Shown here one piece after another: positions 26,330 to 48,600 of a stretch of 51,158 nucleotides of DNA (positions within the stretch are counted from its first letter, which is position 1; each line of letters opens with the position of its first letter). The notes beneath the pieces were generated by a model. That model saw only the letters and a list, made by a program, of their open reading frames with translations, did no database searches and was not told the DNA's origin. The stretch lies in contig DATEGH010000116.1 in assembly GCA_035280185.1 (NCBI GenBank), positions 1 to 51,158 on the forward strand, in the 5' to 3' direction. Source of the stretch: Terriglobales bacterium. Its GTDB lineage: Bacteria; Acidobacteriota; Terriglobia; Terriglobales; Acidobacteriaceae. A program made the translations under genes and the position numbers.

Positions 26330-27106
26330 ATGTTAATATTTCGTGGCAAGCTTTCCGCCTCGCTTAGGCGAAGCTGTTCAACCATGCTGCCCCATAGCTC
26401 TCACCATTTACACGCCAACCGGAAGCTCAGACTGACACAAACGGTTGTTTTGGGATGTGGGCTGCTGTTGCTGGGCGGTCCCGTTTCTGGACGGACGAAG
26501 CAGTCGGGTGGGCCGGTGCCGGTCGTGGTGCAGCCTGGCGCGCCAGGGCAGCCGAGCAAGAGACTTCCCTCCACCACCTCGGCAAAGCTGCCGCCGCTTT
26601 CGCAAGCCGAGGTCGAGTTCATGCAAGGCATGATCGTGCACCACGAGCAGGCAGTGGAGATGACGGCGCTGATTCCGTCACATAGTAATAATAAGGACCT
26701 GCGGACGCTGGGAGCGCGCATCAGCAGGTCGCAGCAGGACGAGATCAAGTTCATGAAGCGCTGGCTGGCCGTGCGCGGAGAGCCGCTCTCAATGCCGATG
26801 GCGGCGATGGAAGGAATGGGCATGCCGCCCCACGCTGCCATGATGATGCCGGGGATGCTTACGCCGGAACAGATGGATGCGCTGCGCAAGGCAAGAGGCC
26901 CTGAGTTCGACCGGCTATTTCTGGGCGGGATGATTCAGCACCACAGTGGCGCTTTGACGATGGTGAAGGACCTGTTTGCCACGCCCGGAGCAGGACAGAA
27001 CGCTGAAGTGTTCGATTTCGCCACCGATGTTGATACCGGCCAGCGAGCTGAAATCAGGATCATGCAATCCATGTTAGAGAAAGAAATTCCAGAGGAGAAA
27101 CAATGA
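26330..27106 (+). CDS. DUF305-family protein (secreted, four-helix-bundle metal-related family)
   Basis: Duplicated HHEQAVEM / HHSGALTM motifs. Start set at ATG 26330 (GGAAGGA upstream), with an alternative ATG at 26384. The upstream part of the track ORF reads through the repeat block. Confidence 0.78.
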   Translation: MLIFRGKLSASLRRSCSTMLPHSSHHLHANRKLRLTQTVVLGCGLLLLGGPVSGRTKQSGGPVPVVVQPGAPGQPSKRLPSTTSAKLPPLSQAEVEFMQGMIVHHEQAVEMTALIPSHSNNKDLRTLGARISRSQQDEIKFMKRWLAVRGEPLSMPMAAMEGMGMPPHAAMMMPGMLTPEQMDALRKARGPEFDRLFLGGMIQHHSGALTMVKDLFATPGAGQNAEVFDFATDVDTGQRAEIRIMQSMLEKEIPEEKQ

Positions 27107-29130: not shown

Positions 29131-29158
29131 GTTGGTTTGGAGTCGTTGAGGTTTTGCG

Positions 29159-29195
29159 GTGTGGCTGTCGAGTGCGGCAGCCACACTTATTTTTT
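29159..29195. terminator. hairpin + T-run terminator between convergent genes
   Basis: GTGTGGCTGTCG / CGGCAGCCACAC stem (1 mismatch), loop AGTG, then TTATTTTTT. The kinase gene ends 22 nt away on the other strand. Confidence 0.8.
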
Positions 29196-29216
29196 GGCGC
29201 TTCTGCGGCCGGATGC

Positions 29217-30605
29217 CTACTCCCAGTTCAGTTCCAGCCGTCGCCTTCTGAAGTCCAGTTGCAGGGCTTTGTGGCTGAAGGCGCGGAACTCGCCGGGAAT
29301 CGCTGTGTCGTGATCGAAGATGTTGCCGGGCGCGTCCACCTGCACGCGAACGGTGTGACGGCCGGCGCGGACTGGAATCGAGAGATCAATACTCTCGCCA
29401 GCGGAAGCGAACTGGTTGCCGGTGGTTGCAGGGGCATGCGACGGGCCGCGCAGTTCATCGTGGTAGCGCAGCTCGCCGTCGACCCAGATGTAGATCTGGC
29501 CGCTGCGAAAAGGATAGGTGCCCACAATGTCGAGCGTTGCCGGCATGGCAGGACTGGAAATCATCGCGACCAGACCTGCGGCGGTCATCAGCAACGCCAG
29601 AAGGCCCGCCGTTACCCAAAGCCAGCGGCGCATTTTGTAATTTCGCTTCGAAACTTTTTCGGAATGCTCCGCTGCGATTGCAATGGTTCGCTCGGTGCCG
29701 GATGAAATCATGACGGTCTTCGCTTGTGAGCGGGCAGCTCTGCCGGAGTTCACATCGTCGAGATCTGCGGCGAAGTCCTTTCCGGATTGGAATCGCTGCG
29801 TGGGATCTTTGGCCAGAGCGCGAGCAAGCACCTGATCGAATCCGGAGCCCAATCCGGGCGCGGCCTGGCTGGGAGCACGAGGCTCTTTGGTTGCAACCTG
29901 GATGGAAACCTCGGTGATGCTCTCTCCCGTAAACGGCTTCTGACCGGTGAAAAGCCAATAAGCGATGACGCCGAGCGAAAAAAGATCGGAGCGTCCGTCC
30001 ACCGGTTTGCCGCTGAGTTGCTCAGGCGACATGTAGGCCGGCGTTCCCAGAAGGTAGCCGGGAAGCGTGGCTTCAACCTGGGAAAGTTTGGCGATTCCAA
30101 AGTCCGCGATTTTGATCTGGCCATCACCGGTGACAAGAATGTTTGCCGGTTTGATATCGCGATGGACGATGCCGTGCGCGTGAGCGTAATCGAGCGCTGC
30201 GGCGATCTGCTGAATCAGGCTGATTGTCGTGTTACGGTCCAGAACGCCTTTATGATCCGCTGCAATGAACCGGTCGAGCGGCTTCCCATCGACATACTCC
30301 ATTACGATGAAAGGAGTATTGTTCGTGTGGTCCTCGTCAGCGTCGAAGATAGTCACAATGCCGGGATGGGAGAGGCGTCCGGCGGCCTGCGCTTCACGAT
30401 AGAAGCGCTGGCGATATTCCTCCATGATCTTGGGATCTGCGCCGGGAACAGCAATGGTCTTGATTGCTACAACGCGGTCGATACGCGGATCGCGCGCGCG
30501 GAACACTGCGCCCATAGCGCCGCGGCCAAGCTCGGCGACAATCTCGTAGCGCCCCAGTTGCTGGATTGCTTGCATGGGTTTCGACCGGATATTTGGGGGA
30601 TTCAC
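29217..30605 (-). CDS. Ser/Thr protein kinase with TM helix and extracytoplasmic PEGA-like beta domain
   Basis: GRGAMGAVF..VAIK, HRDIKPANIL, DFGIAK, TPAYMSPEQ. TM segment WLWVTAGLLALLMTAAGLVAMI. C-terminal YIWVDGEL...VRAGRHTVRVQV. Start is GTG at 30605 or ATG at 30575. Confidence 0.9.
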   Translation of the reverse strand: MNPPNIRSKPMQAIQQLGRYEIVAELGRGAMGAVFRARDPRIDRVVAIKTIAVPGADPKIMEEYRQRFYREAQAAGRLSHPGIVTIFDADEDHTNNTPFIVMEYVDGKPLDRFIAADHKGVLDRNTTISLIQQIAAALDYAHAHGIVHRDIKPANILVTGDGQIKIADFGIAKLSQVEATLPGYLLGTPAYMSPEQLSGKPVDGRSDLFSLGVIAYWLFTGQKPFTGESITEVSIQVATKEPRAPSQAAPGLGSGFDQVLARALAKDPTQRFQSGKDFAADLDDVNSGRAARSQAKTVMISSGTERTIAIAAEHSEKVSKRNYKMRRWLWVTAGLLALLMTAAGLVAMISSPAMPATLDIVGTYPFRSGQIYIWVDGELRYHDELRGPSHAPATTGNQFASAGESIDLSIPVRAGRHTVRVQVDAPGNIFDHDTAIPGEFRAFSHKALQLDFRRRRLELNWE

Positions 30606-30681
30606 CGGGATGTTAGCACGGTAACGAGGGCGTTTTTTGTTCGGTCAGCAGCCGTTGGTACAGTGTCCCGCAGAGTGCGAG

Positions 30682-31263
30682 TTACACGCTGCCGCCTTCG
30701 GCCTTGCTGCCCGGCTGGCGCAGGTCCAACGCAAGCCGGATCACATAGTGTACGCCGGAGACAATGGTGAGAAACATGGTCGCGTTGAAGCCGAACTGGC
30801 GTAGAAGCGCGATCCAGTGCTGGGCAGGAAAAATCTCATGCAGCAGGACCACGGGAATGGTCGCGATCTGCGACACGGTATTCGCTTTGCCGAACCAGCT
30901 CGGGCTGAAGGTCTTCATGGCTCCGGTGGCGTACAGCAAGGTGCAGACAATCAGGATCATGATGTCGCGGCTGAAGACCAGCACGGTGACCACCCATGGA
31001 ATCCGGTGCGTGAGCGAGAGCACCAGAAACATGGTGCTGAGCAGCAGCTTATCTGCGATTGGATCGAGCAATTGGCCGAGCGTGGTCTTCTGCTTCATGA
31101 GCCGCGCCAGTAAACCATCCAGACCATCGCTTACGCCGGCAGCAACAAAAATGCCGAATGCGATGGCGTAATGGTGCTGCTGCAGGGCGATGATGATGAA
31201 TGGGATAAAGACCAGCCGCAGCAGCGTAAGGATATTAGGAGCGGAGCCGAGTTGGCGGATCAT
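30682..31263 (-). CDS. pgsA: CDP-alcohol phosphatidyltransferase (PgsA-like)
   Basis: DGLDGLLAR....T.LGQLLDPIADKLL signature in a multi-TM protein. Confidence 0.82.
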   Translation of the reverse strand: MIRQLGSAPNILTLLRLVFIPFIIIALQQHHYAIAFGIFVAAGVSDGLDGLLARLMKQKTTLGQLLDPIADKLLLSTMFLVLSLTHRIPWVVTVLVFSRDIMILIVCTLLYATGAMKTFSPSWFGKANTVSQIATIPVVLLHEIFPAQHWIALLRQFGFNATMFLTIVSGVHYVIRLALDLRQPGSKAEGGSV

Positions 31264-32409: not shown

Positions 32410-33159
32410 TCAGCTTGCGGCAGCGAGAGCCGGCTGATGAATGCTGAGTGCGAGTTCGGAATCGAACTGTTCGCTTGCTTCGCAGGGATGTCCCGCACGG
32501 TAGCGCATGGTCAGAACCTTTGAGCCACACACGATCTCGGTATAACTCACAGTTGCGGCGTCTTGCCGGTGCATGCAGAGACTGAAGGACCCCTGTTCCG
32601 GCGCATGCGACGCATGCAGACTGCGCAGCCATGGGAGTGATCCGGCATCGCGCATCTTCCAAGCCTCAGAGCAAGTGAGACCGCGTACTTCGCGCGCCAG
32701 TTCGTCAGAGATGCCGGAAGAAAACCAGTGGCGTGCGCGCCACGGCAAATGAAAAATCTCGAGGTGTTCCGCATCCCAGTTCCACTGGCAAATTGCATGC
32801 TCTCCGGGGAAGAACCCAACCAGCCGGAAAGGAAATATGTCGCGCAGGTGCATCCTGCTGATTCGCTGCTCAGCTTCGGAGCGGTTACAGCTTTCGAGCA
32901 GCGGAGGAATCATTTCTCCGCGGCTGCGCAGCTTTGGTGCTCTATCCGATGTTCGATTGCGGTTCAGCAGAGCGAAGCTGATTCCAGTCTCGTTGGCGCC
33001 GATCCAGGTGCCCCCCTCCTCTTCGCGAGGATAGAGCGCCTGCACTGTGCCGGCGCCAGTAATGCGCGGCGAGTAGGCGACCGGGCGAGTAAATCGTTCA
33101 TCGCGGTTCATTCCGATGACGTACGAATTTTTTCCGGGAACAAAGCTGAGAGTGCACAT
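32410..33159 (-). CDS. NRDE-family (TANGO2-like) protein
   Basis: N-terminal MCT... and the GMNRDE motif at residues 16-21. Confidence 0.8.
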   Translation of the reverse strand: MCTLSFVPGKNSYVIGMNRDERFTRPVAYSPRITGAGTVQALYPREEEGGTWIGANETGISFALLNRNRTSDRAPKLRSRGEMIPPLLESCNRSEAEQRISRMHLRDIFPFRLVGFFPGEHAICQWNWDAEHLEIFHLPWRARHWFSSGISDELAREVRGLTCSEAWKMRDAGSLPWLRSLHASHAPEQGSFSLCMHRQDAATVSYTEIVCGSKVLTMRYRAGHPCEASEQFDSELALSIHQPALAAAS

Positions 33160-33775
33160 GCTTTACGTCCGCTGCGTGAGGATGCCTAATATGATACTGC
33201 GATTGCGGGCAGGCAATTCAGAAGCAGAGTACGATTTTTGCGCGCTGCCACTCTTCCCTGATTTTGAAAATCGCAATTCACGAACGGTGATTCAATTTCA
33301 CACTCGCCGGGCCACCTTTATGTATCTTAGGGCGACACGAAAGCGCTCGACCTCAACCAGGAGGACGGACTGCGACGTCCCCTAAGGTGTCGGTCCGATC
33401 GACGGGAGGGCGTCATGGCCCAGCATTCGTTGGGTTGTCTGAAGGGCCAACTCTCAACTAGTACTTTGGTACAACATTAAGAATTTCATTAGTACATGGC
33501 CAGTTGGCGTAAAAAAGCGTCGGGTTTTCGCTGTCCAAAAGGCCAACTCCGGACCGCATAAAAACGGAAGAGAGTGCCGTAACGTACTAAAAAACAGCAA
33601 CTTACGCGATATTGTGCTTTCACGCCTTAGGGTTCCCAGCCACATTAAAAGATTTAACCCACTGCTAATGACGTTCTAATTGCCGCCGAGCAGAATTCGT
33701 GAAGCAGCGCCCCCCCAGGCTTCTGCAGTCGAGCACCGCAGAGTGACGACTTAGGGCAACTCTAGGAGAAAAATC
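33160..33775 (+). promoter_or_regulatory. long AT-rich leader/promoter region with recurring CTTAGGG heptamer
   Basis: 616 bp with no convincing CDS. CTTAGGG at 33326, 33626 and 33750, and its complement CCCTAAG at 33380. GCCAACT / AGTTGGC inverted repeat around 33446-33507. AGGAG RBS at 33764. Confidence 0.55.
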
Positions 33776-36391
33776 ATGAAACGGTCTTCCGGGACTCTGG
33801 CTTTGTTGCGCGTTTTTGTGGGCGCAGTTCTGGTGATTGCAGGCCTCGGCTATTACGCGCACGTTCGTGCCCAGAGTAACGACAATAATCCTAGTGGAGT
33901 AGGTTCCGTTATTGTTCCGCTGCGACCCCTGGCTCCGTTGTCCAGCGTTCCTGTTCCTCCCGTCTTCGGAATTGAAGGCATCGTTGCCGACAAAACCGCG
34001 GCGATCGAGCTGGGGAAAACTCTGTTTTGGGACATGCAGGCGGGCAGCGACGACATTCAAGCTTGCGCAAGCTGCCATTTCAATGCGGGCGCAGACAGCC
34101 GCGTACAAAACCAAGTCAACCCCGGCCAGGCCGGCGGTGACAACACTTTCCAGTTGGGCGTGAACATCAACGGTTCTGTTGGCCCGAACTACCACTACAA
34201 AGCAGGAAGTCCGGACGCCGGTTTTGGCGGCTACCATGACGGCGATTTCCCGTTCCGCAAAGTTGCGAACGAGAACGACCGCTTCAGCGTGATTTCCGAC
34301 GTTAACGACGTTTCCGGTTCCCAGGGAATCTTCCCGATGACCATGGGCCAGATTATTGTTGGCCGCCAGCGCCGGGACGGCTCCGTGGCGGGTAACAACG
34401 GCGCTCATGCCGGCGACAACAACTCGCCCGACCCCACAAACAACAGCGACCTGCCTCTGCGTGGTAATAACCCGCACAATTCCTCACCGAACGCTGCAGG
34501 GTCGTCTCACTTTTCCACGACACATGGTTCCACTTCAACCGGCGGCGGCTCGCGCGTGAGCGTGATCGGCAGCGACGTGACCAGCGCGGAAATTGATAAC
34601 CCAGTGGTTGACCCGGTGTTCTCTTATCCCGATCCAGCCAACCCGGGCGCGCGAATCAATACACGCAGGACGGGAGGCCGCAACGCTCCCAGTGTGGTGG
34701 ACGCGGTCTTCAACTATCGCAATTTCTGGGACGGCCGCGCGCAGAACGTCTGCAACGGCAACAATCCCTTTGGCGCGCGTGATAAGACAGCGCACCTCGC
34801 GGTGATGGAGCCCGATGGAACTCTCGGCGCCGCTCTGGTCAACATGGACAATTCCGCGCTGTGCTCGCAGTCGCTGGGACCGATCCTCAGCAACGCGGAG
34901 ATGTCGGCCGACGGCCGCAACCTGGCCCAGGTGGGAAGAAAGCTTCTGGCGCGCAAGCCGCTGGCCAAGCAATTCGTCGATCCCACGGACAGCATTCTGG
35001 GATCATTCTCCGCTGCTCCTGCGAATGGATTGACGGCCACCTATCCAGCGTTGATTGAGAAGGCGTTCCAGCCGGAGTGGTGGAACTTCAATCTCCACGT
35101 TTGCGAAGCGACGGACGGCAGCATCGCCTCCACCATCAACCCGGACAGAGGCAGATGTCCCTCCGGCACCACCGAGTACAGCCAGATGGAGTACAACTTC
35201 TCGCTCTTCTGGGGAGTTGCCATCCAGATGTACGAGAGCACGCTGATCGCAGATCAGACTCCGCTGGATAAGTATCTGGAGCAGCAAACCACATACACCC
35301 TGATCGGTGACAATCTTACTAATCAGTACACGATTCAACTGAAGCCCGGCGTTACTCCGTACACGATCTCGATCATTGGCCTGAACCCGACGCTCGATGC
35401 CAGCGATCAGGACATGTTTGCCTTCGACGATGGACAGGGCGTGATCCGCGGCGTCGGAGTGAACGGGGGCAGCATTAACTATGCAACCGGCACTTTGACC
35501 GTCTTCTTCGGCGAGCCGCCGGTATCTGAGGTTCCAGTCAAGATCGCCTATTCGAACGGCCCCACACCACTTACGCAGTCGCAGCTCCGCGGGCTGAATA
35601 TCTTCCAGACCAAAGGCCAGTGCGTGGTTTGCCACGGCGGGCCGGAGCTCTCGAACGCAACCGTCGGCACCGTCGGCGACGTGCCGGTGGAGCGCATGAT
35701 CATGGAAGACGATAGCGCCCGCGTGTATGACACCGGCTTCTACCACATCGGAATCCGGCCGACCGCGGAAGATGCGGGCTTGGGCGGGACCGATCCGGTC
35801 GCGGGCATGCCGCTGTCGCAAGCGGAAGTTCTGCGTGAAGATGCCTGCAAGGGCGGATTCGAGACAGTACTCGTTCCGGGACGCCGCGGTGATGGAATCG
35901 CAGCCTCTCCGATGAACTGCTCCGATCCGATTGCGCGCGGCGGCTTCTTCAAAGCTCCGCAGCTCCGCAACGTGGCGCTCACGGCTCCTTACTTCCATAA
36001 CGGAAGCCGTCTGACGCTCGAACAAGTGGTTGAGTTCTATAACCGCGGCGGCGATTTCAACACTGTAGATGAAGTCCAGTACATGGACCCCGACGTCGAG
36101 ATGCTGGGGCTCACCCGGCAGGATGAAGAGGACCTGGTGGACTTCCTGCGCAACGGCCTCACCGATCAACGCACGGTGAATCAGGCTGCGCCCTTCGATC
36201 ACCCGCAGTTGTTCACTCCGAACGGCCACCCTGCGGACAGCAACGGCTACCCGGTACAGAAAGATCCGCAGCATCCGGCTCAGGCCACAACCCAGTTTTT
36301 GGAAGTACCGGCGACCGGGGCCAACGGCGGCAAGCCGCTGCCAACCTTCTTAGAGAACCTGTTGGGGGTGAGCAATGCCAACCCGAAATAG
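33776..36391 (+). CDS. expanded di-haem cytochrome c peroxidase / MauG-family protein (871 aa)
   Basis: Signal peptide. CASCH at 34064-34078 and CVVCH at 35621-35635. [63 protein letters not shown] family motifs. Confidence 0.85.
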
Positions 36392-36500
36392 GTTCAGCGC
36401 AAGCCGCTGCTACTGGCCGCAGAGCCAGACGCAGCTATGTCCGGGAGAAAAAACAAAAAGCAGTGCCAGCAAATTGCAGCATGACGGAAGGAGCTTCAAA

Positions 36501-39203
36501 ATGAGGGGATTTGAGCCAACAATCAACAACTTCAGGGTAGCGGGGATTGTACTGCTGCTGCTGGTAATCGCGGCCCTGGGCGGCACATCGTCAGCCCAGA
36601 GCCTGAATCCAGAGCCGTGGCCCACGCCGGCCGCCATCCCGGCGCCGACGCCGATCATACCCGCGCGCGGCGGAGAGCCTACAGGCTTTCTTCAGATGGG
36701 TTTTATTCAATACGCGTCGCTCGATGCCACGCCGGGGCTTTGCAACAAAGACGATAATCCTGCGCCGACGCCGGCAAATCCCCCCTTGCCCGCGCAGTGC
36801 AAAATCACCGCCGGCTGGATAGAGCTCAACAACACACTCATTCGCGTGCCGCAGAGTACGGTGGTTTACTTTCCCAACACGCTGCTTACGTGGGAGGAAG
36901 CATTTGAGTTGAACCCGAATACCCACCAGACAGATCCCGTATTTCAGACTGGTCTGGCAATGGCCGACACCGTGCGCTTCCCCGGCACCTACGAAGCCCA
37001 AGTTCAGGGCAACATTGTCAACGGCCAGTATATTGCCGGCATTATCTACATCGCAGAGAGTCTTGCCGCCGGCGATGGAAATATTCAGGGATTCATTGAG
37101 AAGTTCGACTACGCCAACGGTATTTTTTACGTTAATGGAACTCGGGTGCAGATGAATGATCCTCGACTCACCATCACCGTTCCCAATCCCGATGGTACGC
37201 CTGCCACGGACGCCAATGGCAATCCAATCGTATTGACGAAAGGGCGCCAGAGCGCCGGGCAATCTGCTGATCCGCGGTTCGCCATTGACCAGAACAATCC
37301 TTCGGTCACGGGAGAGACCGGCTACCCGATGTGTATCCCGCAGACCAGCCCCTATATTGATGGCTCGGATGGTTCGGAAGGCGCCGCGCTGACTCTTCTC
37401 CTTCCTGATGCTCAGCAAGATTCGCAGTGTCCGGAGAAAAACCGTCCTCGCGATGCGGAAAGCGGCACACTCCTGCTGCCCATCTTCACCATGAATGCGC
37501 CGGGAGCCGCGCCCACAACAGATAACCCGATTCCTCAAGATCCGTATTCAGAGATGCCGTTTGAAGTCGGAGATTTCGTGAACGTTGTCGGCAATCTGGA
37601 GGTTGATGCGAACGGTCCATACATTACGGCGACGGACATCGAAGACACCAGCGTCGGCGCCTATACCTGGCCGAATACTGATCCTGCCTACGTCCGCATC
37701 AACGTAACCATTGAAGGAACCGGTGGCGTTCCCTCGCCTTTCTTCCCGCAAGAAGCCGGTGTGCGCACCAGGGTGGAAGGTTTCAGCACCGATCCGCAGC
37801 GCACCGTGGATGTTTCCGCCATAGACCAGGATTGCAACGGCAACCTGACCTTCCGCGAGCCTGCATGGGCCGCGAACTTCCCGGTGGAACCTGGCGTACC
37901 CGGTATTGGCGTGAAAGGCCGCTGGCGCATGCGTTTCCCGCAAGGCGGCAAGTTCGAGCCTGCGGTGCAGAACATCGGCGCCCGAATCAGCGGTGGCGTT
38001 CCCGGCAAAATGACCAGCGGAGTTACTTATGACGAGTACCAACTGCCTGTACAAGTGCTGATCTTCCCGGAAAACCTGGTTCCCGGCAGCCAGCCGCCGA
38101 AGGCCAATTTTGGGGACGTCCTCTACCTGGACAACGGCATGGGACAGTTGCCGATGGTCAGCGACGTGTTCGATAGCGATCAGGTCCAGTTGGGCCTGCA
38201 AGCGGCGCCGTTCTATCCCAACCAGCTCATGGGGCAGTTGAATCCTTTCCCGGATGCAACGCTGCCTCCCATCACTTGTATTCCGGGGACGTTCTCCTCG
38301 ATCGCGGTGCCGAAGTTCACTTCGAATCCGAATCCGCCGTTTGCCGGCATTACAGTTACGCTGGATGGAACTGCGAGTAATCCGCCAACAGGACCCTTCG
38401 CCTGGACACAAGTCATCAACCCCGGCGATCCGATTGTGACCATCAACAACCCGAACACGGCAAAGCCGACGTTCATCGCGCCGACTGTGGCCGGGCCGCA
38501 GAACATCGTCTTCCAGTTGATCGTGGGTGGAGACGGAGTTGTTCCGGCTTCCGCGCCTGCAACGGTCAGCGTGCCGGTTGTGATTGCTCCGCCGAATACG
38601 CCGCCTGCGCTTAGCGCCACGGCATCGTTCGCTGGACCGCCGGCTGTGAGCGGAACCGCCATCAGCGTGCCCAGCAACGCCGCAGGCGTAACACTGACGG
38701 CAACGGGTGTGGATCCCGCAGGTGGAACGATCACTTATACGTGGTCCGGTCCTGCCGGAGTCGTGTTGACCCCGGCCGCAGCCGATGGCTCGGTGCAGAC
38801 TTTCACCGCGCCTGAGGTGCCGGAACTGACCGCAGCTCAGACCCTGACCTTCACTGTGACGGGCACGAGCTCCAACGGTGGATTGACCGGCACTGCCACA
38901 GTCACTGTGACCGTGGAGCCTGTGACGGACCGCATCGTCATCAGCAACGTGGTCTATCGCCGGACCAAGGGACGCCTCATCGTCAACGTCAGCGACTTTA
39001 CGCCGAACGTAACGCTGACTTGCACGCTGGACATCATCAATCCGGCAACAGGACTGCCGTGGTCGGGCGTGATGGGACCGATTAACCCATTCGCTCAGGG
39101 CGTGTTCTCGATCCGCTTCAGCAACATCCCGGCGCCAAACCTGGTGACTATCACCTCGAGCGCGGGTGGTGTCGCAACCTCGGGCGTCACCTTCCTGAGG
39201 TAA
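36501..39203 (+). CDS. secreted hypothetical protein (900 aa) with two C-terminal PKD/Ig-like domains
   Basis: Start trimmed to MRGFEPT... (GGAAGGAG upstream, signal/TM segment GIVLLLLVIAALGGTSSAQS). C-terminal ITVTLDGTASNPP... and VTLTATGVDPAGGTITYTWSGP... Ig-like repeats. The N-terminal ~600 aa are unassigned. Confidence 0.7.
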   Translation: MRGFEPTINNFRVAGIVLLLLVIAALGGTSSAQSLNPEPWPTPAAIPAPTPIIPARGGEPTGFLQMGFIQYASLDATPGLCNKDDNPAPTPANPPLPAQCKITAGWIELNNTLIRVPQSTVVYFPNTLLTWEEAFELNPNTHQTDPVFQTGLAMADTVRFPGTYEAQVQGNIVNGQYIAGIIYIAESLAAGDGNIQGFIEKFDYANGIFYVNGTRVQMNDPRLTITVPNPDGTPATDANGNPIVLTKGRQSAGQSADPRFAIDQNNPSVTGETGYPMCIPQTSPYIDGSDGSEGAALTLLLPDAQQDSQCPEKNRPRDAESGTLLLPIFTMNAPGAAPTTDNPIPQDPYSEMPFEVGDFVNVVGNLEVDANGPYITATDIEDTSVGAYTWPNTDPAYVRINVTIEGTGGVPSPFFPQEAGVRTRVEGFSTDPQRTVDVSAIDQDCNGNLTFREPAWAANFPVEPGVPGIGVKGRWRMRFPQGGKFEPAVQNIGARISGGVPGKMTSGVTYDEYQLPVQVLIFPENLVPGSQPPKANFGDVLYLDNGMGQLPMVSDVFDSDQVQLGLQAAPFYPNQLMGQLNPFPDATLPPITCIPGTFSSIAVPKFTSNPNPPFAGITVTLDGTASNPPTGPFAWTQVINPGDPIVTINNPNTAKPTFIAPTVAGPQNIVFQLIVGGDGVVPASAPATVSVPVVIAPPNTPPALSATASFAGPPAVSGTAISVPSNAAGVTLTATGVDPAGGTITYTWSGPAGVVLTPAAADGSVQTFTAPEVPELTAAQTLTFTVTGTSSNGGLTGTATVTVTVEPVTDRIVISNVVYRRTKGRLIVNVSDFTPNVTLTCTLDIINPATGLPWSGVMGPINPFAQGVFSIRFSNIPAPNLVTITSSAGGVATSGVTFLR

Positions 39204-39212
39204 CCGGAAGAC

Positions 39213-39244
39213 AGGGCTGCCGGGCATCGGGCGCCGGCAGCCCT
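39213..39244 (+). other. GC-rich stem-loop in the intercistronic gap (weak terminator/attenuator or mRNA stabiliser)
   Basis: AGGGCTGCCGG / CCGGCAGCCCT 11-bp stem with a 10-nt loop. The nearest T-run is 13 nt downstream, so this is not a classic terminator. Confidence 0.4.
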
Positions 39245-39328
39245 GAAACACAAAAGTTTTTGTCCCCGCGCCTCGGGCTCGAAGAGCGGGAAACGCAGTA
39301 AACGGATTACAGAAGAGAGGAACCGAAA

Positions 39329-41815
39329 ATGAACTCGAACTTTATGCGGGCCCCTGGCGGCATCGAGCGTCAGCACTCCAAGGAGGGAGCCTTGCTCAAT
39401 CGCAACTCTTTCAAATACATCCTCGGGCTGGTGCTGGTCACGCTGCTCGCGGCATCGGGCGCTTTCGCCACGCCCAGCACGCAGGTGGCGAATGAAGGCT
39501 TGTTCCGTCCGCGCGGCATGGTGCGCTCCACCGTGCCAGATCCCAATGGCGGGCCGGCGCTGCATGACTTCTGGGTCAGCGACGGCGCTTCAGGGTTCTG
39601 CCGCATTGATCGGCTTCCTGACCCGAAATTCCCCGGCAAGACGCATGGCGTCCTGAACCTGAGCACCTGCTATCTCCCTGGCGTGTTCGAGCCAATGGAT
39701 TATCAGGTGGAGACGCTGAATGTGAACGGCTCCAACGGCTATGTGTTCGTGGGCGGGATTAAGGAAATCACCCGTTTGGAATTTATGCCTTCTCCCACCG
39801 AACCTGGCCGCACCGTCATTAATACGGCCACCCAGGTCACGATCTTCAGCAGCGTCAACTCGGTGTTCACCAATGGCGCGCCGGTGAATGGCCCGCGCTT
39901 CGTGCAGAGCCTGAAGCTTGGCCCGGACGGCAAGCTCTATCTTTGCTTCCAGGGCAGCGGTGATATCTGGCGCGTTCTCAATCCTCTTTCTCCCAGCTTC
40001 ACCAAGGCAGGAAATGCGGTGGAGCGCGTGGGAACATCGGACAACGGAAAGACGCTGTTGAGCTTGGCTTGGATCGGGCACGACCTTTGGATGGCCCAGG
40101 CAGGCTTCCTCAACCGCATCCAAAATGCTGACCAATGCAACTACACGCTGCCCAAGTGCCAGGCTGTACTCGAGTTCGGGAAGTTGCAGACCCAGGAAGG
40201 CATGCAGTCCGATCAGTACTTCTCCACCATCCCCAATGGCCGTTGGCTCTATTGGGGTAACGGAAACCGCGTGGTCCGCTTTGATACGCAGAGCGCCGAC
40301 ATCATGCAGGTTTGGAACCAGAGCGGGTTTGTGAATGGCAGCGCCATTCCTCAGGAATACTCGCTTATCATGGGCATTAATTTCATCCAGCGTGATGCCC
40401 CGGTGGCCTTGGCCGATGGCAGCTTCCTTGAAGACATGACGGTGACCACGGACCCCATCATCGAAGCGCCGTTACCTGAAGTGGCCGCCACACTTCCGCG
40501 AACCGGAAGAACGTGGCTGCTGACGGCCCTTCCAACGCTGGTGCCCGAGCCGTGCAATACCACAACCCCGGTGTTCGGGAACTTGAATCCGCCGCCTTGC
40601 GTTAACAGCCAGATCGGTAACGACGCTCCTCCGATTGACTCTCCGCAGTTCAACGCGGCGCGCCGCTCGGTCCTGATGCTGGCGGGGGTCACCCACGCTC
40701 GCGGTTTGATCTTCCTGCAAACCAACTGGTGGATTTCCGATGAAGACAACGGATTCTGCCGCATCGATCTGAATGCGGTCACGGGCGCAGCTTCTATGAG
40801 CAACTGCTTCCAGCCGGCCGGTTTCTGGCCTGGCCAGCCGGCAGCCGATGCACCGGATGCTTCAGGCGCGCAGAATGTTTACGTACCCAACGCCTGCGGC
40901 CTCATCTCCGGATGCACGCTGGGCGGCGGCACGCCGGGGATCATGCGACTGAAGTTTATTCCTGATGGCACCGGTGGAACCGTTTCCCAGACCGGCGTTC
41001 TGAACTCTGGCCGTGGTACGCCTTCGGCGGTTGCGATTCCCAACGGTCCGTTCAACGATGGCGCCGTTTACATCGGTTATTACGACAACGGCAAGATCAA
41101 CAAGGTCCAGCAGCCGGCGACAGCTCCCGGGGCACCACTGCCTGTGGGCGGCCTTTTGAACTCCGTTGGCCTTCTCAGCATGGCCTTCCAAGGCAATGAC
41201 CTGTATATGGCCGAGATCGGACCTCCGGTCCTCAACGGCGGTCAGTTAGTCAAGAAAGGGCAAGTAAGCGTTCTGGTGGCGGCTTCGCCTGACGCATCGA
41301 GAGGCAGCGCTCAGCCGGTGGCAAAGCCGATCTCACGCTTGCAGAGCCCAACTACGGTTGCGACTCCGCAGCTCTTCGTCAACCCCGGCGCGATGGTGGT
41401 TGGCCCTGATGGCGACCGTGAGAGATGTCTGCCTCCCTTGGGTGTGAAGCTCTCAGCCGGTATTCCGGCGGATCCTGGAACGGCCCCTGCTCTCTACATG
41501 GGAGGTTTGGGCCTGCCCGCCGACAGCGCGGTTTCCGGTGGCCTGGCTCAACCGCCTGAGGTTGTCCAGTATGGCTCCATCTGCACCACGATGATTGATT
41601 GGGTGATTGATGGCGCGCTGGATCCCACACTCAGCCTTAACGTGGACCTTGGCCCGGTGACGGCGTTGGCTTTCAACGGCGCCGATTCCACCTCGAACCT
41701 GGCCATCGCGGACGATCCTGGATTGATCATCCCCGATCAGACGCTGCAAAAGAGCCAAGTTACACCGCCGCTGACCGGACTGCACGGTCAAGGGCACGTA
41801 TTCATCGTTCCGTAA
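39329..41815 (+). CDS. secreted hypothetical protein (828 aa), internally duplicated
   Basis: Signal peptide (LVLVTLLAASGAFA). Motif FWVSDGASGFCRIDRL (~39568-39615) recurs as WWISDEDNGFCRIDLN (~40726-40775). No family recognised. Confidence 0.7.
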   Translation: MNSNFMRAPGGIERQHSKEGALLNRNSFKYILGLVLVTLLAASGAFATPSTQVANEGLFRPRGMVRSTVPDPNGGPALHDFWVSDGASGFCRIDRLPDPKFPGKTHGVLNLSTCYLPGVFEPMDYQVETLNVNGSNGYVFVGGIKEITRLEFMPSPTEPGRTVINTATQVTIFSSVNSVFTNGAPVNGPRFVQSLKLGPDGKLYLCFQGSGDIWRVLNPLSPSFTKAGNAVERVGTSDNGKTLLSLAWIGHDLWMAQAGFLNRIQNADQCNYTLPKCQAVLEFGKLQTQEGMQSDQYFSTIPNGRWLYWGNGNRVVRFDTQSADIMQVWNQSGFVNGSAIPQEYSLIMGINFIQRDAPVALADGSFLEDMTVTTDPIIEAPLPEVAATLPRTGRTWLLTALPTLVPEPCNTTTPVFGNLNPPPCVNSQIGNDAPPIDSPQFNAARRSVLMLAGVTHARGLIFLQTNWWISDEDNGFCRIDLNAVTGAASMSNCFQPAGFWPGQPAADAPDASGAQNVYVPNACGLISGCTLGGGTPGIMRLKFIPDGTGGTVSQTGVLNSGRGTPSAVAIPNGPFNDGAVYIGYYDNGKINKVQQPATAPGAPLPVGGLLNSVGLLSMAFQGNDLYMAEIGPPVLNGGQLVKKGQVSVLVAASPDASRGSAQPVAKPISRLQSPTTVATPQLFVNPGAMVVGPDGDRERCLPPLGVKLSAGIPADPGTAPALYMGGLGLPADSAVSGGLAQPPEVVQYGSICTTMIDWVIDGALDPTLSLNVDLGPVTALAFNGADSTSNLAIADDPGLIIPDQTLQKSQVTPPLTGLHGQGHVFIVP

Positions 41816-41841
41816 GCTGCAATCAGCAACCCTCATCAGCA

Positions 41842-41875
41842 GGCCGGCGGCGCAATCCCGCCGGCCATTTTTTTT
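41842..41875 (+). terminator. strong rho-independent terminator
   Basis: GGCCGGCGG / CCGCCGGCC stem, loop CGCAATC, followed by A + 8 T. Confidence 0.88.
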
Positions 41876-42246
41876 GCGAAACTGCTGACCACACTGTGTC
41901 AGGGAGTTTCCAGGAAGAAGCGATCCTTGAAACATCTCTTCTTGAGAAATTACTCGAATACCACCTGTCTGCCACTCTGCCGAACCAGCTCGTACTTCGC
42001 TCCTTGATCGGAATCGCCTCCTGCTCTTCATTAAAACCATTAATTTGCCCTTAACACATCTTTAATCCCGAAGAGATTAACTGTCACACATCGCATTACG
42101 ACGGTCGCACGAAGACGAGTAACAAGCGGCAGAGAAGCAAAACCTTTCCGGGTCTCCGCCAGAAAAAACAAAAGATTTTTTTGAAGGTGGCCAGTTCCGC
42201 TGACTGAACAGGAGCCGCCTGTTTTGGGCACTACCAGGAGAACATC

Positions 42247-42657
42247 ATGATTTCTGCACGGCACATCATCCGCGCGTTGTGTCTCATTGTCGCCTCTTTC
42301 GCCCTGAGCGCCTTCGCCGTTGCGGCGGCGGGCGGGTTCAGCGGCAGCTACAAACTGGGAACTGCCGTAGCTTCTGAGGGCGGAGTCCAGCTCACCATTT
42401 CGCTCGCCATTTCCAACAACACATCCAGCGCCATCAGCAACGCCACCATCTCGCTGCACGAGCCCAGGGCCGCGCGCGTGATTTATGGGCAGCTCGATGG
42501 CGTCTCGCTGCCGGCGGGCGCGCGCACAGAGGTGAGCGGCTCTTTCACCGTGCCCCAGGACCTTTACGACTCCTGGAAAAAAGGAAGTTCTCCGGCCATG
42601 AGCGTCAGCTTCACGGACGCCAAGGGTAATCCGGTTCGGGCCTTTATCGAGTTCTAG
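42247..42657 (+). CDS. small secreted hypothetical protein (136 aa)
   Basis: Signal peptide (LCLIVASFALSAFAVAAA) and beta-rich composition. Ends 26 nt before the giant gene. Confidence 0.6.
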   Translation: MISARHIIRALCLIVASFALSAFAVAAAGGFSGSYKLGTAVASEGGVQLTISLAISNNTSSAISNATISLHEPRAARVIYGQLDGVSLPAGARTEVSGSFTVPQDLYDSWKKGSSPAMSVSFTDAKGNPVRAFIEF

Positions 42658-42683
42658 CAAAGATTCTGTTGGGGAGGCACGCC

Positions 42684-45600
42684 ATGCGGGCGGCTAACAA
42701 TATTTTCGTCTCAAAAACACAAACGGCAACAGCAAGGATCTTCAAGGCCGGCGCGTATTCGCTGCTGGCTGTTCTGTTGCTTGTGGCATTCGTGTTTCCA
42801 TCAAGCGCGCTGGCGCAGACCAGCTACGTTTATGTGAACAACCAGACCTCGAGCAACGCAGTCTCGATCTACCGCGCTTCTGCCACGGGCAGCCTTTCCG
42901 CGGTGGGAACTCCGGTGCTCACCGGCGGTCTGGGCGCAAACGTTGTCTGCTACGGCTTGAATCGCATCGCGCTGAGCCAGACGAACAACCTCCTGTTTGT
43001 GGCGAACACGGGCGACCGCACCATCACTGCGTTTCAGATCAATCCCGCAACCGGCACGCTCACGCGCACCGCGGGCTCACCGTTCCCCAGCGGACTCACG
43101 GCCGATAGCTGCCAGGGATTCTCGCTGGCTGTGACTCCCGATGGCCAGTTCCTGATGGCTTCCAGCAACGGGCAGATTCGCACGTTCAGCGTGGCGGCAA
43201 ACGGAGCGTTGACTTTCCTCAGCAGCACCGCGAACTGCTGCTCGCCCAACTCCGGCATGACCATCTCGCCCGATGGCCGCCTTCTGGCGGTTTCTAACGA
43301 GACGAGCGTCTCCATGTTCTCCATCAGCGGCGGCGTGCTGACTCCGGTGCTGGGATCTCCATTTCCCAGAACAGGCACAGGCAATATTTCCGGCCTCGAT
43401 TTCAGTTGTGCGGCTGACCGTCTCTACGCCGGTGAAGCTACCGGCAGTCCAGCGCAAGCGGATGGTTGGACGGTGGACCTCAATGGCGCGCTGACTCCTG
43501 CTCCGCTGTCTCCGTTCCAGAGTTCGGGCAGCAACTCCAACATGGTGGTCTACAGCCCCGACAATACGTTGATATTCCAGAGCAACCAGTTCAGCAACAG
43601 CATCAACTCGTTTGTAGTAAACCCTGACGGCAGTCTTACCAACGCAGGCAAATTCGGCGGCTCAACTCAGGTACACACTCCAGTGGGAATGGCTACAGAT
43701 GCTACCGGGACATTCCTGTTTGTGGCGGACGATAGCTTTGGAGTAGCGGCTTTCCGGATCGGCAACGGAGGCGTCCTTGCCTGGTTGAGCGACTTGGCCA
43801 TCAGCCGTCCGGGAGAAATCCAGGACCTCGCAGTCTATCCCGCGCGTTCCTGCGCCAGCGCCGATCTCGCGCTGACGATGACAGCGGTTCCCAATCCCGC
43901 GCCTTCAGGCGCTCCCATTCAGTACACCCTGAACATCACCAACAATGGCACGCCTGCGGCATCTGCTGTGGTGGCGGACACGCTTCCGCCCACGCTCTCC
44001 GCAGGCGGCAGCGCGCAGATCGCGAACCCGAGCGGAGCACAGCGCGTCAACACAGTTTCAGGAACAACCGTCAGCGGCGTAGTCACGATTACAACGACTG
44101 TCCCGCATCAGCTTGTCGCAGGCCAGACGGTGACGGTCGCATCAGTGCCGGCGCCCACGACTCCGAATCCAATCCAGCAGGGCTTCTTCCTTACCGATCC
44201 TGGATTCAACGGCGTCGTCAAAATCGTATCGGTTCCCAGCCCCACAAGCTTCACGTATAACCAGACGCTTCAACTCTCGCAGTTTCCTAAGCCGTCGTTG
44301 AACATCGTCGCATCAACTGGGGCACAGCGTCTCGCCGGAACTGTGACCATCACGGCGACAGTGCCGTTCCAGCTTACGCCGGGAACGTTGATGACGATTG
44401 CGGGCGTCGCAAACACGAGTTTCGATGGAACATTTGCAGTAGCATCACAGCCCTCTCCCACGACGTTTACTTATGCCCAGGCAGGACTCGATGCCGTCAG
44501 CGGTGGCGGAACAGCCACAGCGCCCGTCAATGTGCCGGCCACTGATGTTGCCGGAGGCGGCAGCATGAGCAGCGCTGCCTGCCAGGTGACGCTCGGCACG
44601 GGGACCTGCGGCACTGCCAGCTTTGCTCCTCGGCCGCCAATCGTAACAGCAGTTCGCGCGAGCAATGTCGTCACCATCACAACGCCGGTGCCACACCAGC
44701 TCTTCCCCGGACAGAAAATCACCATTCAGGGCGTGACGGACACGACCTTCAACGGCACATTCACGATTGTCGATACGCCTTCGGCCACGACGTTCACCTA
44801 CAACCAGACAGCGGCCGACGCCAGCAGCAAGGGCGGCGCCGTCCTGGCGGCTGCAACCACAGCCCAGTTGATTACGTTCAACGCTCTCAGGGCCGGCGAG
44901 ACCCGCACTGCGCTGATCACGGCCACTTCCTCAAGCACGGTGGCCAATGGCACGGTGATAAGCAACACGGCGGCCATCACCAATAAATCCGTGGTCGATC
45001 CGAACCCTGCCAACAACTCGGCGACTGTGGATGTGACCATCGGCGCGGCAAGCGGAACCAGCCTTACGGTTCCGACCGCTACCGGTCCCTACGGCGGAGT
45101 GGCCGTGGTGAGTGCGATTCTTAAGGACAGCACCGGTGCGCCGATCGCAGGCGAAACCATCGGCATCAACTTCAACCAGAACAACAGCCAATACAACGCG
45201 ATTACAGACGGCACCGGAACGGCAACCGTTTCCGTCCCGCTGGGTTTCACCACAGTGGGCACGCATGCTGCAGCATTCACCGCCACCTTCGGCGGCGACG
45301 CCACACATTCCGCCAGCAGCGCCACGGGCGATCTGATTGTGACCAAGGCGCAGTTGACTGTAACGGCCGACAATCAGGCGCGGCTCTATGGCGATCCCAA
45401 TCCGCCGCTGACTTACACCATCACCGGTTTCGTGAACGGCGATACCATCGCGGTTGTAAGCGGCGCGGCTGATTGCTCGACCACAGCTACGCTGACCAGT
45501 CCGGTGGGAGCTTATCCGATTACTTGCACCATCGGCACCCTTGCCGCGCAGAACTACGTCTTCGTCTTCGTGCCTGGAACTCTCACAGTCAATCCCGCGC

Positions 45601-48600
45601 CTCTGACGGTGAACGTGGCCAACGCGACGCGTGCCTACGGCGATCCGAATCCGTCATTCACTGGAACGATTGTCGGCATCAAGAACGGTGACAACATCAC
45701 GGCCACCTACAGCACGACCGCGACCATCACCAGCCCGGTTGGGAATTACCCAATCACGGCGACTCTCTCTGATAACGGCACGGGCGCGCTGGCGAACTAC
45801 ACTATCACCATCAACAATGGCACGCTGACGGTTACTCCCGCCGCCCTGGTCGTGACTGCGAACAACGCAGCCCGGCTCTATGGCGATCCGAATCCGCCAT
45901 TCAGCGGCACCATCGCCGGCATCAAGAACGGCGACAACATCACCGCGATTTACACGACTCCGGCAACACCAACCAGCCCCATCGGCAGCTATCCGATTAT
46001 TCCTACGCTGACGGACAATGGCACCGGCGCGCTGGCGAACTATGTTGTCACGGCCAACAACGGATCGTTGACGGTTAGCGCTGCACCTCTCACCGTGACC
46101 GCAGCTGATGCGACGCGTCCGTATGGCCAGCCGAACCCGGTGTTCACCGGCACGATTGTCGGAATCAAGAACAACGAGAACATCACTGCCACCTATAGCA
46201 CCGCTGCAACCGTGACCAGCCCGGCGGGAACGTACCCAATCGTGCCCACGGTTTCTGACAACGGCACCGGCGTGCTGGGCAACTATTCCGTCACTCTCGT
46301 GAACGGAACTCTCACCGTGACGCAGGCAGTTCTTACCGTTACGGCAAACAGCGCCAGCAGGCTCTATGGCGATCCCAACCCGGCCTTCACCGGAACGATT
46401 ACGGGAATCGTAAACGGCGATAACATCACCGCGACTTACGCGAGCGCCGCTGATCCAACCAGCCCGGTGGGAACGTATCCAATCGTGCCCACGCCTTCTG
46501 ATAACGGAACCGGCGCGCTGGCCAACTACAGTGTGGTGCTCGTCAATGGCGTTCTGACTGTGAATCCCGCGCCGCTGACCGTAACAGTGGCGAGCGTGAG
46601 CCGTGTCTATGGCGATCCCAACCCGGTGTTCAGCGCCACGATTGTCGGCATCAAGAACGCTGACAACATCACGGCTTCGCTGACCACAACTGCAGACCCA
46701 ACCAGCGCAATCGGAACCTACCCAATCGTGGCCACACTGGTTGATCCCACGAGCAAGCTGGGCAACTACACAGTAACGATCAACAACGGCACGCTGACCA
46801 TCACTGCTGCTCCGCTGAGCGTTACGGCCGGCAATGCCAGCCGTCTCTTCGGAACGGTAAATCCGCCGCTGAGCGGCATCATCCTGGGAATCAAGAACGC
46901 TGATGCCATTTCGGCGACGTATGCCACAACCGCTGTCGCTACCAGCCCCGTGGGAACGTATCCCATTACGCCTACGCTGGTTGACCCGGCAGGCAAGCTC
47001 GCCAATTACACCGTCACGTCCAACAACGGAACTCTGACGGTGAACGCAGCGCCGACAGCAAACTTCGTCTTCGTCAACAACCAGGCTGCAACCGGCAACA
47101 GCATCAACGGCTACTCAGTCGCGGCTGATGGCTCGCTGACCGCGCTGGCCGGTTCGCCTATTGCCGCCGGTGGACTCGGCGCCAACGCTGTCTGCTCCTC
47201 GGTGAATCGTTTGGCCCTGAGCGCCGGCAACAATCTGCTGTTTGTTTCCAACGGCGGCGACCAGACCATCAGCGCCTTCCAGATCAATCCTGCAACCGGC
47301 GCGTTAACCGCAGCGGGAGCGCCTGTTGCCTCTGGCTTGACGCTCGATGCATGCTCCGGCATCTCGCTGGCGGCGACACCTGACGGCCAGTACCTGATGG
47401 CCTCCAGCAACGGCCAGATCAAGACCTTCAGCATCGGCGCAGGTGGAGTGCTCACGGCTGTTTCGACTGCTGCGAACTCGGCTCTGCCCAACGCGGCGAT
47501 GAAGATCTCCGCCAACGGAAAGTTCCTGGCGGTCTCGAACCAGACCAGCGTTTCCGTTTACGCTATCAACGGCGATGGTTCGCTGACTGCGGTCGCGGGC
47601 TCGCCCTTCGCCGAGACCGGCACGGCGACTCTCGCCGGGCTCGACTTCAGCTCCACCAGCGGCCTGCTCTTCGGTGCAGAAGCCAGCGCAACTTCCTCAC
47701 TGGCTGACGCGTGGACCGTCGCAGCGAACGGCGCGCTTGCCGCGGTTACGGGCAGCCCGTTCAGCATCGGCGCGATCAACTCCAGCACCGTTCTCCTAAG
47801 CCCGAATGATGCCTTCCTGTTCGCCGCCAATCAGGGCAGCAGCAGCGTGAGCGCATTCAGCGTGGCGGGCGGAAGCCTCACCAGCATCGGCAGCTTCGGC
47901 AGCGCAGCTTCACTGCATGCTCCTGTGGGCTTGGCGACCGACCGCTCCGGCACTCTGCTCTACGTGGCGGATGACACCTTCGGCGTGGCAGTGTTCCAGG
48001 TGGGACTCACCGGTTCGCTCTCGCAACTTGGCGACACCGCCATCAGCGGCGCAGGCCAGGTGCAGGCGCTGGTTGCCTATCCGCCGCGCATGACCAGCTC
48101 GGCTGACATGAGCGTCAGCGTCACCGCAGCTTCGCCCAATGTCGTGGCCGGTCTGAACGTGACCTACACGATTACCGTGACCAACAACGGAGCTGATCCG
48201 GCTTCGGCGACTGTGAGCGATACGCTGCCCACAGGCTTCAGCGTGGTTTCCTGCGCGGCAACCGGCAACGGCGCGTGCATCGGCAACACCGGCGCGGCCA
48301 GCTTCTATCTGTTGCAGAGCGGCGAAACACAGACTGTAACCCTCGTGGCGCAGACCAGCCTCTCGATTCCGGATGGAACTATCGCGACCAACACCGTCAA
48401 CATCAGCAACAGCTCGGCGATTGATCCCAACGCGGCGAACAACTCAGCCAGCGTAAATGTCACAGTCGCCCAGCCGATCACCACAGTTACCACCGTTGCG
48501 GCAGCCAGCGGGATTTACGGCGGCAGCACGACTCTTTCCGCCACGCTGAAAGACACACTCGGCAATCCAATCGCAGGCAAGACGCTCAGCTTCTCGCTGA

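Follow-up and report, generated by a model that had tools for sequence, protein, structure and literature searches.

This locus raises the question of what an enlarged, exported di-haem enzyme of the CCP_MauG family is doing beside two large secreted proteins. It lies on a contig of a Terriglobales bacterium (DATEGH010000116.1, assembly GCA_035280185.1), of which positions 1-51,158 are referred to here as the window. It consists of three consecutive genes, called A (the di-haem enzyme), B and C (the two secreted proteins). An initial reading of the locus (the original prediction) had proposed an uncharacterised extracytoplasmic system made up of the enzyme and two secreted partners. That proposal is now supported by the order of these genes in other genomes, by a tyrosine in A that aligns with a haem ligand of MauG, and by a protein in which A and B are fused. 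No description of the A-B(-C) module was found in the literature.

The features of the locus are listed in Table 1. The three genes are on one strand, and each has a ribosome-binding site of the AGGAG-like kind upstream of its start. The N-termini of all three proteins read as signal peptides, in which basic residues are followed by a hydrophobic segment and a site of the AxA type, and the predicted cleavage sites are ...HVRA/QS in A, ...TSSA/QS in B and ...GAFA/TP in C. Cytochromes of the c type mature outside the cytoplasm, and because A contains two CxxCH motifs, it must do the same. For B, the first ATG of the open reading frame (ORF) is at 36375, giving a protein of 942 residues, but the ATG at 36501 is favoured because the orthologues align from residue 1 of the 900-residue form. 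The spacers are 109 nucleotides (A-B) and 125 nucleotides (B-C), the second containing a GC stem-loop without the U-run of a terminator. The site that closes the unit behind C is the sole strong terminator-like site on the + strand within 33000-42800. The unit thus has the features of a single operon, namely one strand, short spacers, no strong internal terminator and a strong terminator at the end, and co-transcription of A, B and C is plausible on this basis. The original prediction was accurate on most of these points: the three exported proteins of 871, 900 and 828 residues, the two gaps, and the terminator, which has nine G-C pairs and T8. It had also described a 616-bp AT-rich leader upstream of A, for which the length is right while the AT-richness is only mild (51% G+C, compared with 58.6% for the window).

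Table 1. Features of the A-B-C locus and its surroundings, in window coordinates unless residues are given.
Feature	Position	Strand	Remarks
Leader / divergent intergenic region upstream of A	33160-33775	+	616 nt, 51% G+C
Leader motif GGTACA...TAGTACATG (GGTACA-N-TAGTACATG)	about 33467-33498 (within 33465-33499)		~280-310 nt before A start
Leader motif ATTAAAAGATTTAA	33644-33657	+	palindromic; invariant in orthologues
Leader motifs TAATGA; CTAAT	33666-33671; 33676-33680	+	invariant in orthologues
Gene A	33776-36391	+	871 aa, exported di-haem CCP_MauG-family enzyme
Haem motif C97ASCH101 of A	34064-34078	+
Haem motif C616VVCH620 of A	35621-35635	+
Tyr755 of A	36038-36040	+	column of MauG haem ligand Tyr294
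Gene B	36501-39203	+	900 aa, secreted partner
Signal peptide of B	residues 1-32	+	read from sequence
Novel all-beta domain of B	residues ~60-595, nt 36678-38285	+	~500 aa
PKD/K319L-like domains of B	residues ~617-813	+	Pfam
Ig-like domain of B, C-terminal	residues ~815-900	+
G+C-rich RNA hairpin	39212-39245	+	right after B stop codon; without U-run
Second small hairpin in B-C spacer	about 39265-39290	+	conserved
Gene C	39329-41815	+	828 aa, secreted, no known domain
Intrinsic terminator closing A-B-C	41842-41875	+	9 G-C pairs, 7-nt loop, T8
136-aa secreted protein	42247-42657	+	no known domain; first gene of downstream unit
Giant surface protein	42684-51158, runs off window end	+	at least 2825 aa

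Protein A belongs to the CCP_MauG family (Pfam PF03150, 70 bits, cut-off 25.6), as had been supposed from the start. As well as its two haem motifs, it has the other hallmarks of the family: an inter-haem tryptophan (Trp318, in FWDGRA), a distal Q..GP..EM and the sequence PYFHNG. Both CxxCH motifs, Trp318 and the remaining motifs are kept in all 15 sequences compared, in all branches. There are more than 3257 homologues, and for most of them the label is Terriglobia or 'Candidatus Angelobacter'. The A of the nearest genome relative, a metagenome-assembled genome of the Acidobacteriales, is 88% identical. Protein A is more than twice the length of the MauG, MbnH and RoxA proteins with which it is compared here, and the extra length comes from two clade-specific insertions, at residues ~110-295 (partly low-complexity) and 502-597. 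A pair of cysteines, C326 (34751-34753) and C363 (34862-34864), flanks the insertion at the peroxide site. The pair is found (VCNG ... LCSQ) in four long-form, B-linked A sequences from Terriglobia; the other ten aligned sequences have Phe/Ala at these positions, including the B-linked form from locus L051 (described below). It is possibly a clade-specific disulfide.

By the curated models, A is neither MauG nor MbnH. It scores 43.3 bits with the MauG equivalog model TIGR03791 (cut-off 443.85) and 95.7 bits with the MbnH model TIGR04039 (cut-off 362.85). MbnH is nevertheless its best NCBIfam match, and also the best PDB match for its C-terminal haem domain.

One view of A would be that it is an ordinary periplasmic peroxidase that detoxifies peroxide, next to unrelated surface proteins that merely travel along with it. 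This is what is implied by the database name of A and its homologues, 'cytochrome c peroxidase' (CCP), and the residues of the peroxide site are indeed conserved. However, A has 871 residues compared with ~320-350 for the bacterial enzymes (bCCPs), and it has a different residue at the position of a haem ligand. In the canonical bCCP, the sixth ligand of the electron-transfer haem is a methionine (Met258 in the Nitrosomonas europaea enzyme). In the alignment, the column that holds Met in N. europaea bCCP (1iqc, ETMGR) holds Tyr755 in A (EFY755NR), Tyr294 in MauG (LFY294NK, in 3l4m and related chains) and also a tyrosine in MbnH (DIYSEGG). Judged from this alignment, A is therefore of the MauG (His/Tyr) type, and not a detoxifying peroxidase. 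The six-coordinate haem of MauG is Tyr-His ligated (PMC6405878).

The neighbours of A were surveyed in two independent ways. From the A side, 78 genome loci were fetched, and a locus was counted as assessable if it contained a long-form A and at least 600 nucleotides of DNA downstream, which left 48. In 46 of these, with A identities of 49-88%, B is the next gene downstream; in the other two, A is a Methylococcales (methanotroph) gene that belongs to a different subfamily. A C-like gene comes right after B in 34 of the 39 loci that extend far enough. Several genomes have two or three diverged A-B(-C) modules, and therefore the unit has been duplicated as a whole. There are also 27 loci in which A lacks the 502-597 segment, and B is downstream of A in none of them. 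One of these is L051, from a bin labelled Betaproteobacteria, where two B genes are found directly upstream of one A; the two B proteins are 30-34% identical to B over the novel domain described below. Short Terriglobia paralogues of A without ~502-597 (L052-L078, for example L061:9554-11797) have no B and no conserved neighbour. These short paralogues keep the MauG-type Tyr.

From the B side, 79 metagenome loci were analysed. An A-like gene is adjacent to B on the same strand in 54 of them (38 upstream and 16 downstream), and the 25 without an adjacent A are all truncated. Where there is enough DNA on both sides of B, the A-like gene is always present (16/16). Moreover, A and B can be one protein. 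P0462 (1472 residues, L165:3157-7575) is a single uninterrupted ORF, in which an A-like module containing the tyrosine, here in FYSRGG, is followed by an Ala/Ser/Thr/Pro-rich low-complexity linker and a B domain. Around it lie two more B-like genes, as well as genes resembling those for type II secretion pseudopilins. The insertion at 502-597 was considered as a universal docking domain for B and rejected, because the L051 and fused forms of A do not have it and still pair with B.

Conservation of this gene order had been named beforehand as one of the tests of the idea of a three-protein system, and the order is conserved. Synteny and fusion together are what a physically interacting pair would give. 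We regard it as very probable that the pairing of A with B is real and far beyond chance. It persists where identity has fallen to 30-50%, occurs in two phyla and with the genes in either order, and is also seen within one fused polypeptide, which is difficult to reconcile with a plain peroxidase among unrelated neighbours, and that explanation now seems to us very improbable.

Behind the signal peptide of B is a large domain, followed by PKD/K319L-like domains and a C-terminal immunoglobulin (Ig)-like domain. The C-terminal part matches PF22352 in two stretches (56 bits, cut-off 27) and a profile search of the PDB matched the KIAA0319L PKD structures, in agreement with the PKD-like C-terminus that had been noted originally. 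For the N-terminal domain, no Pfam or NCBIfam family was found either in B or in the 51 diverse relatives scanned, and no PDB match was found by sequence or profile search, in which the PKD domains alone were matched. When B and C were run against NCBIfam, nothing was obtained beyond the PKD regions of metallopeptidase models. Save for the PKD/Ig part of B, both partners are without a Pfam, NCBIfam or PDB match and so lie outside characterised families, as the original prediction had supposed; this second test, too, did not refute it. The domain is not rare: an exhaustive HMMER search found it in 464 clusters at 50% identity. When the alignment was shallow, with 38 sequences of no less than 62% identity, AlphaFold2 modelled the N-terminal part of full-length B with a predicted local distance difference test score (pLDDT) of only 20-60. 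With 51 diverse representatives, residues 1-610 are predicted to be all-beta, with a pLDDT of 81 and a predicted template-modelling score (pTM) of 0.80. Foldseek found no match for this model of the domain in the PDB or BFVD (best E 2.5e-3, TM-score no greater than 0.15).

Across 116 family members, the conserved residues of B are D257, R259, D263, R315, D358, E418, D431, R474, Y513 and E524, together with Y397, which is 98% conserved. A pair of cysteines, C278 and C310, is also conserved. C278 is lost in nine sequences, and in six of these nine C310 is lost as well; from this pattern the pair looks like a structural disulfide. There is no conserved Trp or His in these 116 members, and no recognisable metal-binding motif in B.

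A different role for the enzyme was also considered. PKD/Ig domains are common in secreted polymer-active proteins, and A is large and secreted like RoxA, so that A could be a RoxA-like secreted oxygenase, which attacks an extracellular polymer or small molecule with B and C as binding or anchoring helpers. The multiple paralogous modules per genome could then mean different substrates. There is also a weak match of A to the RoxA-like cytochrome c family PF21419 (24.5 bits), but this is below the cut-off of 26.7 and spans only the motif shared by all CCPs. The score for RoxC (NF051462) is 13.9, compared with a cut-off of 900, RoxA is not among the PDB matches of A, and the Tyr at the ligand position points to MauG-type chemistry. 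In addition, fusion and strict pairing are, to our knowledge, not features of Rox systems. An oxygenase of this kind fits poorly, as does the plain peroxidase, and we consider it improbable.

We hypothesise instead that A and B are obligate partners in an oxidative module of two proteins outside the cytoplasm, with C as a frequent third component. One haem of A would react with H2O2 (or with O2 and electrons). The second haem would be His/Tyr-ligated, an arrangement that in this class of enzyme permits a high-valent bis-Fe(IV) state and the transfer of electrons or holes over long distances. A would dock on its dedicated partner B and oxidise a target there. If this target is a residue of the novel beta-domain, Tyr397 stands out as the candidate; otherwise it could be a cation or ligand bound at the conserved Asp/Glu/Arg/Tyr site. 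A would act on B much as the di-haem enzymes of MbnH/MbnP and SACCP/MopE mature their secreted, metal-binding partners, although the partner family is unrelated. The PKD/Ig tail of B and the duplicated protein C (see below) would probably serve to anchor the module, either to the cell surface or to a substrate that is solid or polymeric. In our judgement the chances are about even that B, or something bound to it, receives high-valent haem oxidising power from A; what we infer from the comparisons made here is the docking, the direction of the oxidation, its chemical target, and what C and the tail domains do.

The sister clades provide a further clue. In the clade in which A is ~50-60% identical, the gene order is a multicopper oxidase (MCO) exported by twin-arginine translocation (Tat), then a SCO1/SenC-cytochrome c protein, A, B and a TIG/NHL propeller. 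More distant loci, with an A that is closest to that of L051, read B - A - MCO - SCO1. The Tat-exported MCO of the sister clade has all four copper motifs (HEH, HDH, HPIHIH and HCHxxxHxxxxM). Among 16 fully assessable B loci, 10 contain an MCO and 8 contain SCO1. An MCO and a SCO1/SenC-cytochrome c fusion are seen flanking A-B at L043:6164-9546, at L044:4930-7757 and in many of the loci L104-L164. There are also B genes without A, in loci L079 and L084, which lie behind a giant MCO-like protein, a ~195-residue protein and a YncE-like propeller. In L084 the propeller includes a YtkA-like domain, and in L079 there is also an SCO1 + cytochrome c + periplasmic-binding-domain protein. Clusters of the type MofA/OmpB-MofC-SCO1 have been described from bacteria that oxidise Mn(II) or Fe(II) and from Geobacter (PMC5566968). 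A homologue search found no MCO or SCO1 anywhere in the window, which is not itself a cluster of the MofA/OmpB or MCO-SCO1 type. The original prediction missed this copper-oxidase link as well as the conserved genes downstream of C.

With copper oxidases as neighbours, the A-B pair might be part of an extracellular metal-oxidising or mineral-interacting complex. B would then be an unmodified subunit that binds a cation or mineral and brings Mn(II), Fe(II), Cu(I) or a surface to the oxidase, this being A here and an MCO in the related loci. We know of no characterised MauG-type enzyme that oxidises free metal ions, which counts against such a complex, as do the absence of MCO and SCO1 homologues from the window and the absence of a recognisable metal-binding motif in B. 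Nevertheless, the conserved site of B is Asp/Glu-rich and is the same with or without A, and MCO and SCO1 do stand beside A-B in the sister clades, at the frequencies given above. The B clusters that lack A also resemble the MofA/OmpB-MofC-SCO1 layout, although what MofA, OmpB and MofC do is itself unproven (PMC5566968). The metal-binding explanation overlaps with the oxidative module, and the two are compatible. It is the main alternative, and we consider it possible but somewhat unlikely.

There are several points that weigh against the oxidative module of A and B. The scores of A are far below the curated MauG and MbnH cut-offs, and the chemistry of those enzymes cannot be transferred to it. 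The B proteins that have no A beside them (L079 and L084) keep the same conserved residues, so the site in B does not depend on A for its existence. Because no Trp or His is conserved, sites like tryptophan tryptophylquinone (TTQ) or like kynurenine/Cu are not expected in B, and a TTQ or cysteine tryptophylquinone (CTQ) cofactor or a kynurenine/His copper site was rejected for that reason. C278 and C310 were also considered as a redox or metal site, which was judged unlikely because the two are mostly lost together. C is absent after B in 5 of the 39 loci, and the A-B fusion P0462 is known from a single metagenome contig.

Protein C has no match in Pfam (even at E up to 5), in NCBIfam or in the PDB, by sequence or by profile. 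It is internally duplicated: residues ~79-259 (39563-40105) match residues ~465-631 (40721-41221), with an hhalign probability of 98.3% and an E value of 1.7e-14. Each half contains the module GFCRID...YxGY...G.I.K...NDLYxAE. The module is homologous (97.3%) to the N-terminus of a 932-residue TIG+NHL protein, which takes the place of C after B in the sister clade. Comparison of C using hhalign with the YncE-like propeller of the loci without A showed no relation.

The conserved neighbourhood extends beyond the terminator that closes A-B-C. The 136-residue protein encoded next has 52-64% identity over its full length in 13 orthologous loci, with C on one side of it and the giant gene on the other. 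Its gene has an antisense shadow, the minus-strand ORF at 42040-42660. The giant protein has a signal peptide, two lactonase-type 7-bladed beta-propellers, DUF11 domains and 17 MBG_2 repeats, laid out as two large tandem super-repeats. It has 57-73% identity in at least 12 orthologous loci, and a full-length orthologue has 3076 residues. A role for it as a MofA-like oxidase was considered and rejected, because there is no copper-oxidase domain in the full-length orthologue. The two genes are found downstream in at least 13 orthologous loci, and are known here as conserved neighbours only.

The leader adjoins a minus-strand gene for a TANGO2-like protein. The motifs listed in Table 1 are invariant in 8 orthologous loci, whereas the remaining leader can mostly not be aligned. 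Three of them, ATTAAAAGNTTTAA, TAATGA and CTAAT, are found ~95-130 nucleotides before the start codon of A. From their conservation, these short motifs are candidate operator or promoter elements. A promoter scan that included the leader found no sigma-70 consensus on the + strand, and no Rfam family was found in the window, leader included.

The hairpin that follows the stop codon of B has 12-14 G-C-rich pairs and is kept in 12 orthologous loci, where 5 of 19 pairs show double compensatory changes. It has the look of an element for RNA processing, stabilisation or attenuation, and not of a stem that arose by chance. A second, smaller hairpin follows it in the spacer, and the RBS upstream of C (GAAGAGAGGAACC) is conserved. 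The hairpin element of the spacer may set the ratio of B to C expression.

The genes upstream of A are kept only in the nearest relative and are unrelated to A-B-C. A Ser/Thr protein kinase (Pkinase, E 1e-52) is encoded on the minus strand at 29217-30605, and the + strand ORFs at 29154-29705 and 29787-30770 (29154-30770), which had been considered as members of the system, are shadows of it. On the + strand at 26156-29130 there is a DUF305 protein (316 residues), whose stop codon overlaps the start of a 675-residue protein with faint LVIVD/beta-propeller matches only. These two genes are possibly a small operon; the pair is not conserved beside A-B-C in other loci.

There are few MauG-type enzymes with a known job, these being MauG, MbnH and, by proposal, SACCP/CorB, and each time the substrate is a neighbouring protein. 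Here, a large conserved subfamily is tied to a partner for whose main domain Pfam, NCBIfam and the PDB contain no relative. Homologues of the subfamily number in the thousands in the Terriglobia, which are a dominant soil group, and a genome often has two or three copies. The fusion and the links to MCO and SCO1 lead to hypotheses that can be tested: a metal site or protein-derived cofactor of a new kind, and perhaps an unrecognised extracellular oxidation activity in soils. They also bear on the possible function of the B domain in MofA/OmpB-like clusters, with their putative roles in manganese and iron redox chemistry. More speculatively, and with the odds rather against it, the B domain might represent a new, widespread class of extracytoplasmic redox partner, which works with either a MauG-type enzyme or a MofA/OmpB-type MCO. 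The Terriglobia module would then be a new two-component extracellular oxidase, acting on a metal ion, a mineral surface or an organic polymer, or else it would install in B a cofactor not derived from tryptophan, for example one derived from tyrosine.

It remains to compare the module with the systems already described. In MbnH/MbnP, a di-haem enzyme and its adjacent partner are kept together well beyond one pathway (PMC3621798). The resemblance is that a CCP_MauG di-haem enzyme stands beside a dedicated exported partner, that MbnH has its tyrosine in the same column as Tyr755 of A, and that in the sister clades the A-B module is beside copper-handling genes. However, the MbnH chain has 388 residues, and A is more than twice as long. 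The partners are also different: neither B nor C matches an NCBIfam model of the MbnP family, and B has a ~500-residue novel domain plus PKD domains and no conserved Trp or His.

SACCP (MCA2590)/MopE and CorB/CorA each consist of a di-haem protein that is co-transcribed with a secreted or surface partner. SACCP is surface-associated, while CorB is apparently mainly periplasmic, and both have been proposed to oxidise a tryptophan of the partner to kynurenine, thereby building a copper site (PMC3912023). The combination of a di-haem peroxidase-family protein with a secreted partner is the same here, SACCP being compared by description only; the difference is that, outside its PKD domains, B matches no chain in the PDB by sequence or by profile. 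Beside the two A-like genes of Methylococcales (31-32% identity) are genes for other proteins, which have no PDB sequence match. It was considered whether these methanotroph relatives of A stand beside a solved partner (MopE or CorA), but this was rejected, because the upstream protein has no PDB or NCBIfam match.

With MauG and pre-methylamine dehydrogenase the module shares the tyrosine, Tyr755 being in the column of Tyr294, as well as the inter-haem Trp, the export of the enzyme, and the paradigm of a substrate that is the product of a neighbouring gene. It differs in that there are no mau genes nearby, no neighbour in the window matches a methylamine dehydrogenase family, and B does not have the conserved Trp needed for TTQ. 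In mtoX-SCO1/senC-mauG operons, MauG-like and SCO1 genes are conserved beside an exported enzyme and have been read as maturation factors for it (PMC5739008). The SCO1-cytochrome c protein that adjoins A in the sister clades is reminiscent of this arrangement. However, the client in those operons is SBP56, compared with the unrelated B domain and/or an MCO here, and the locus in the window has no SCO1.

The B clusters without A share with the MofA/OmpB clusters a giant MCO-like protein, SCO1, and cytochrome c + periplasmic-binding-domain, a likeness of domain composition only. No B-like component is described for the MofA/OmpB clusters (PMC5566968), and the locus in the window has a di-haem enzyme in place of the MCO. 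BthA from Burkholderia is, like A, an orphan MauG-like enzyme. It was found by mapping the CCP_MauG superfamily, and has a stable bis-Fe(IV) state and an unknown physiological substrate (PMC6405878). Its match to A is weak (E 9e-5, over a block of 48 residues), and it has no reported obligate partner gene. Both the curated scores and the partner set A-B apart from the families compared here: B is not MbnP, MopE, a methylamine dehydrogenase subunit or SBP56, and the Trp/His chemistry on which such partners rely is missing from it. By analogy with these systems, A and B would appear to represent a new CCP_MauG subfamily together with a new family of partner domain, following the same logic as MbnH/MbnP, SACCP/MopE, CorB/CorA, MauG/pre-methylamine dehydrogenase and mtoX-SCO1-mauG.

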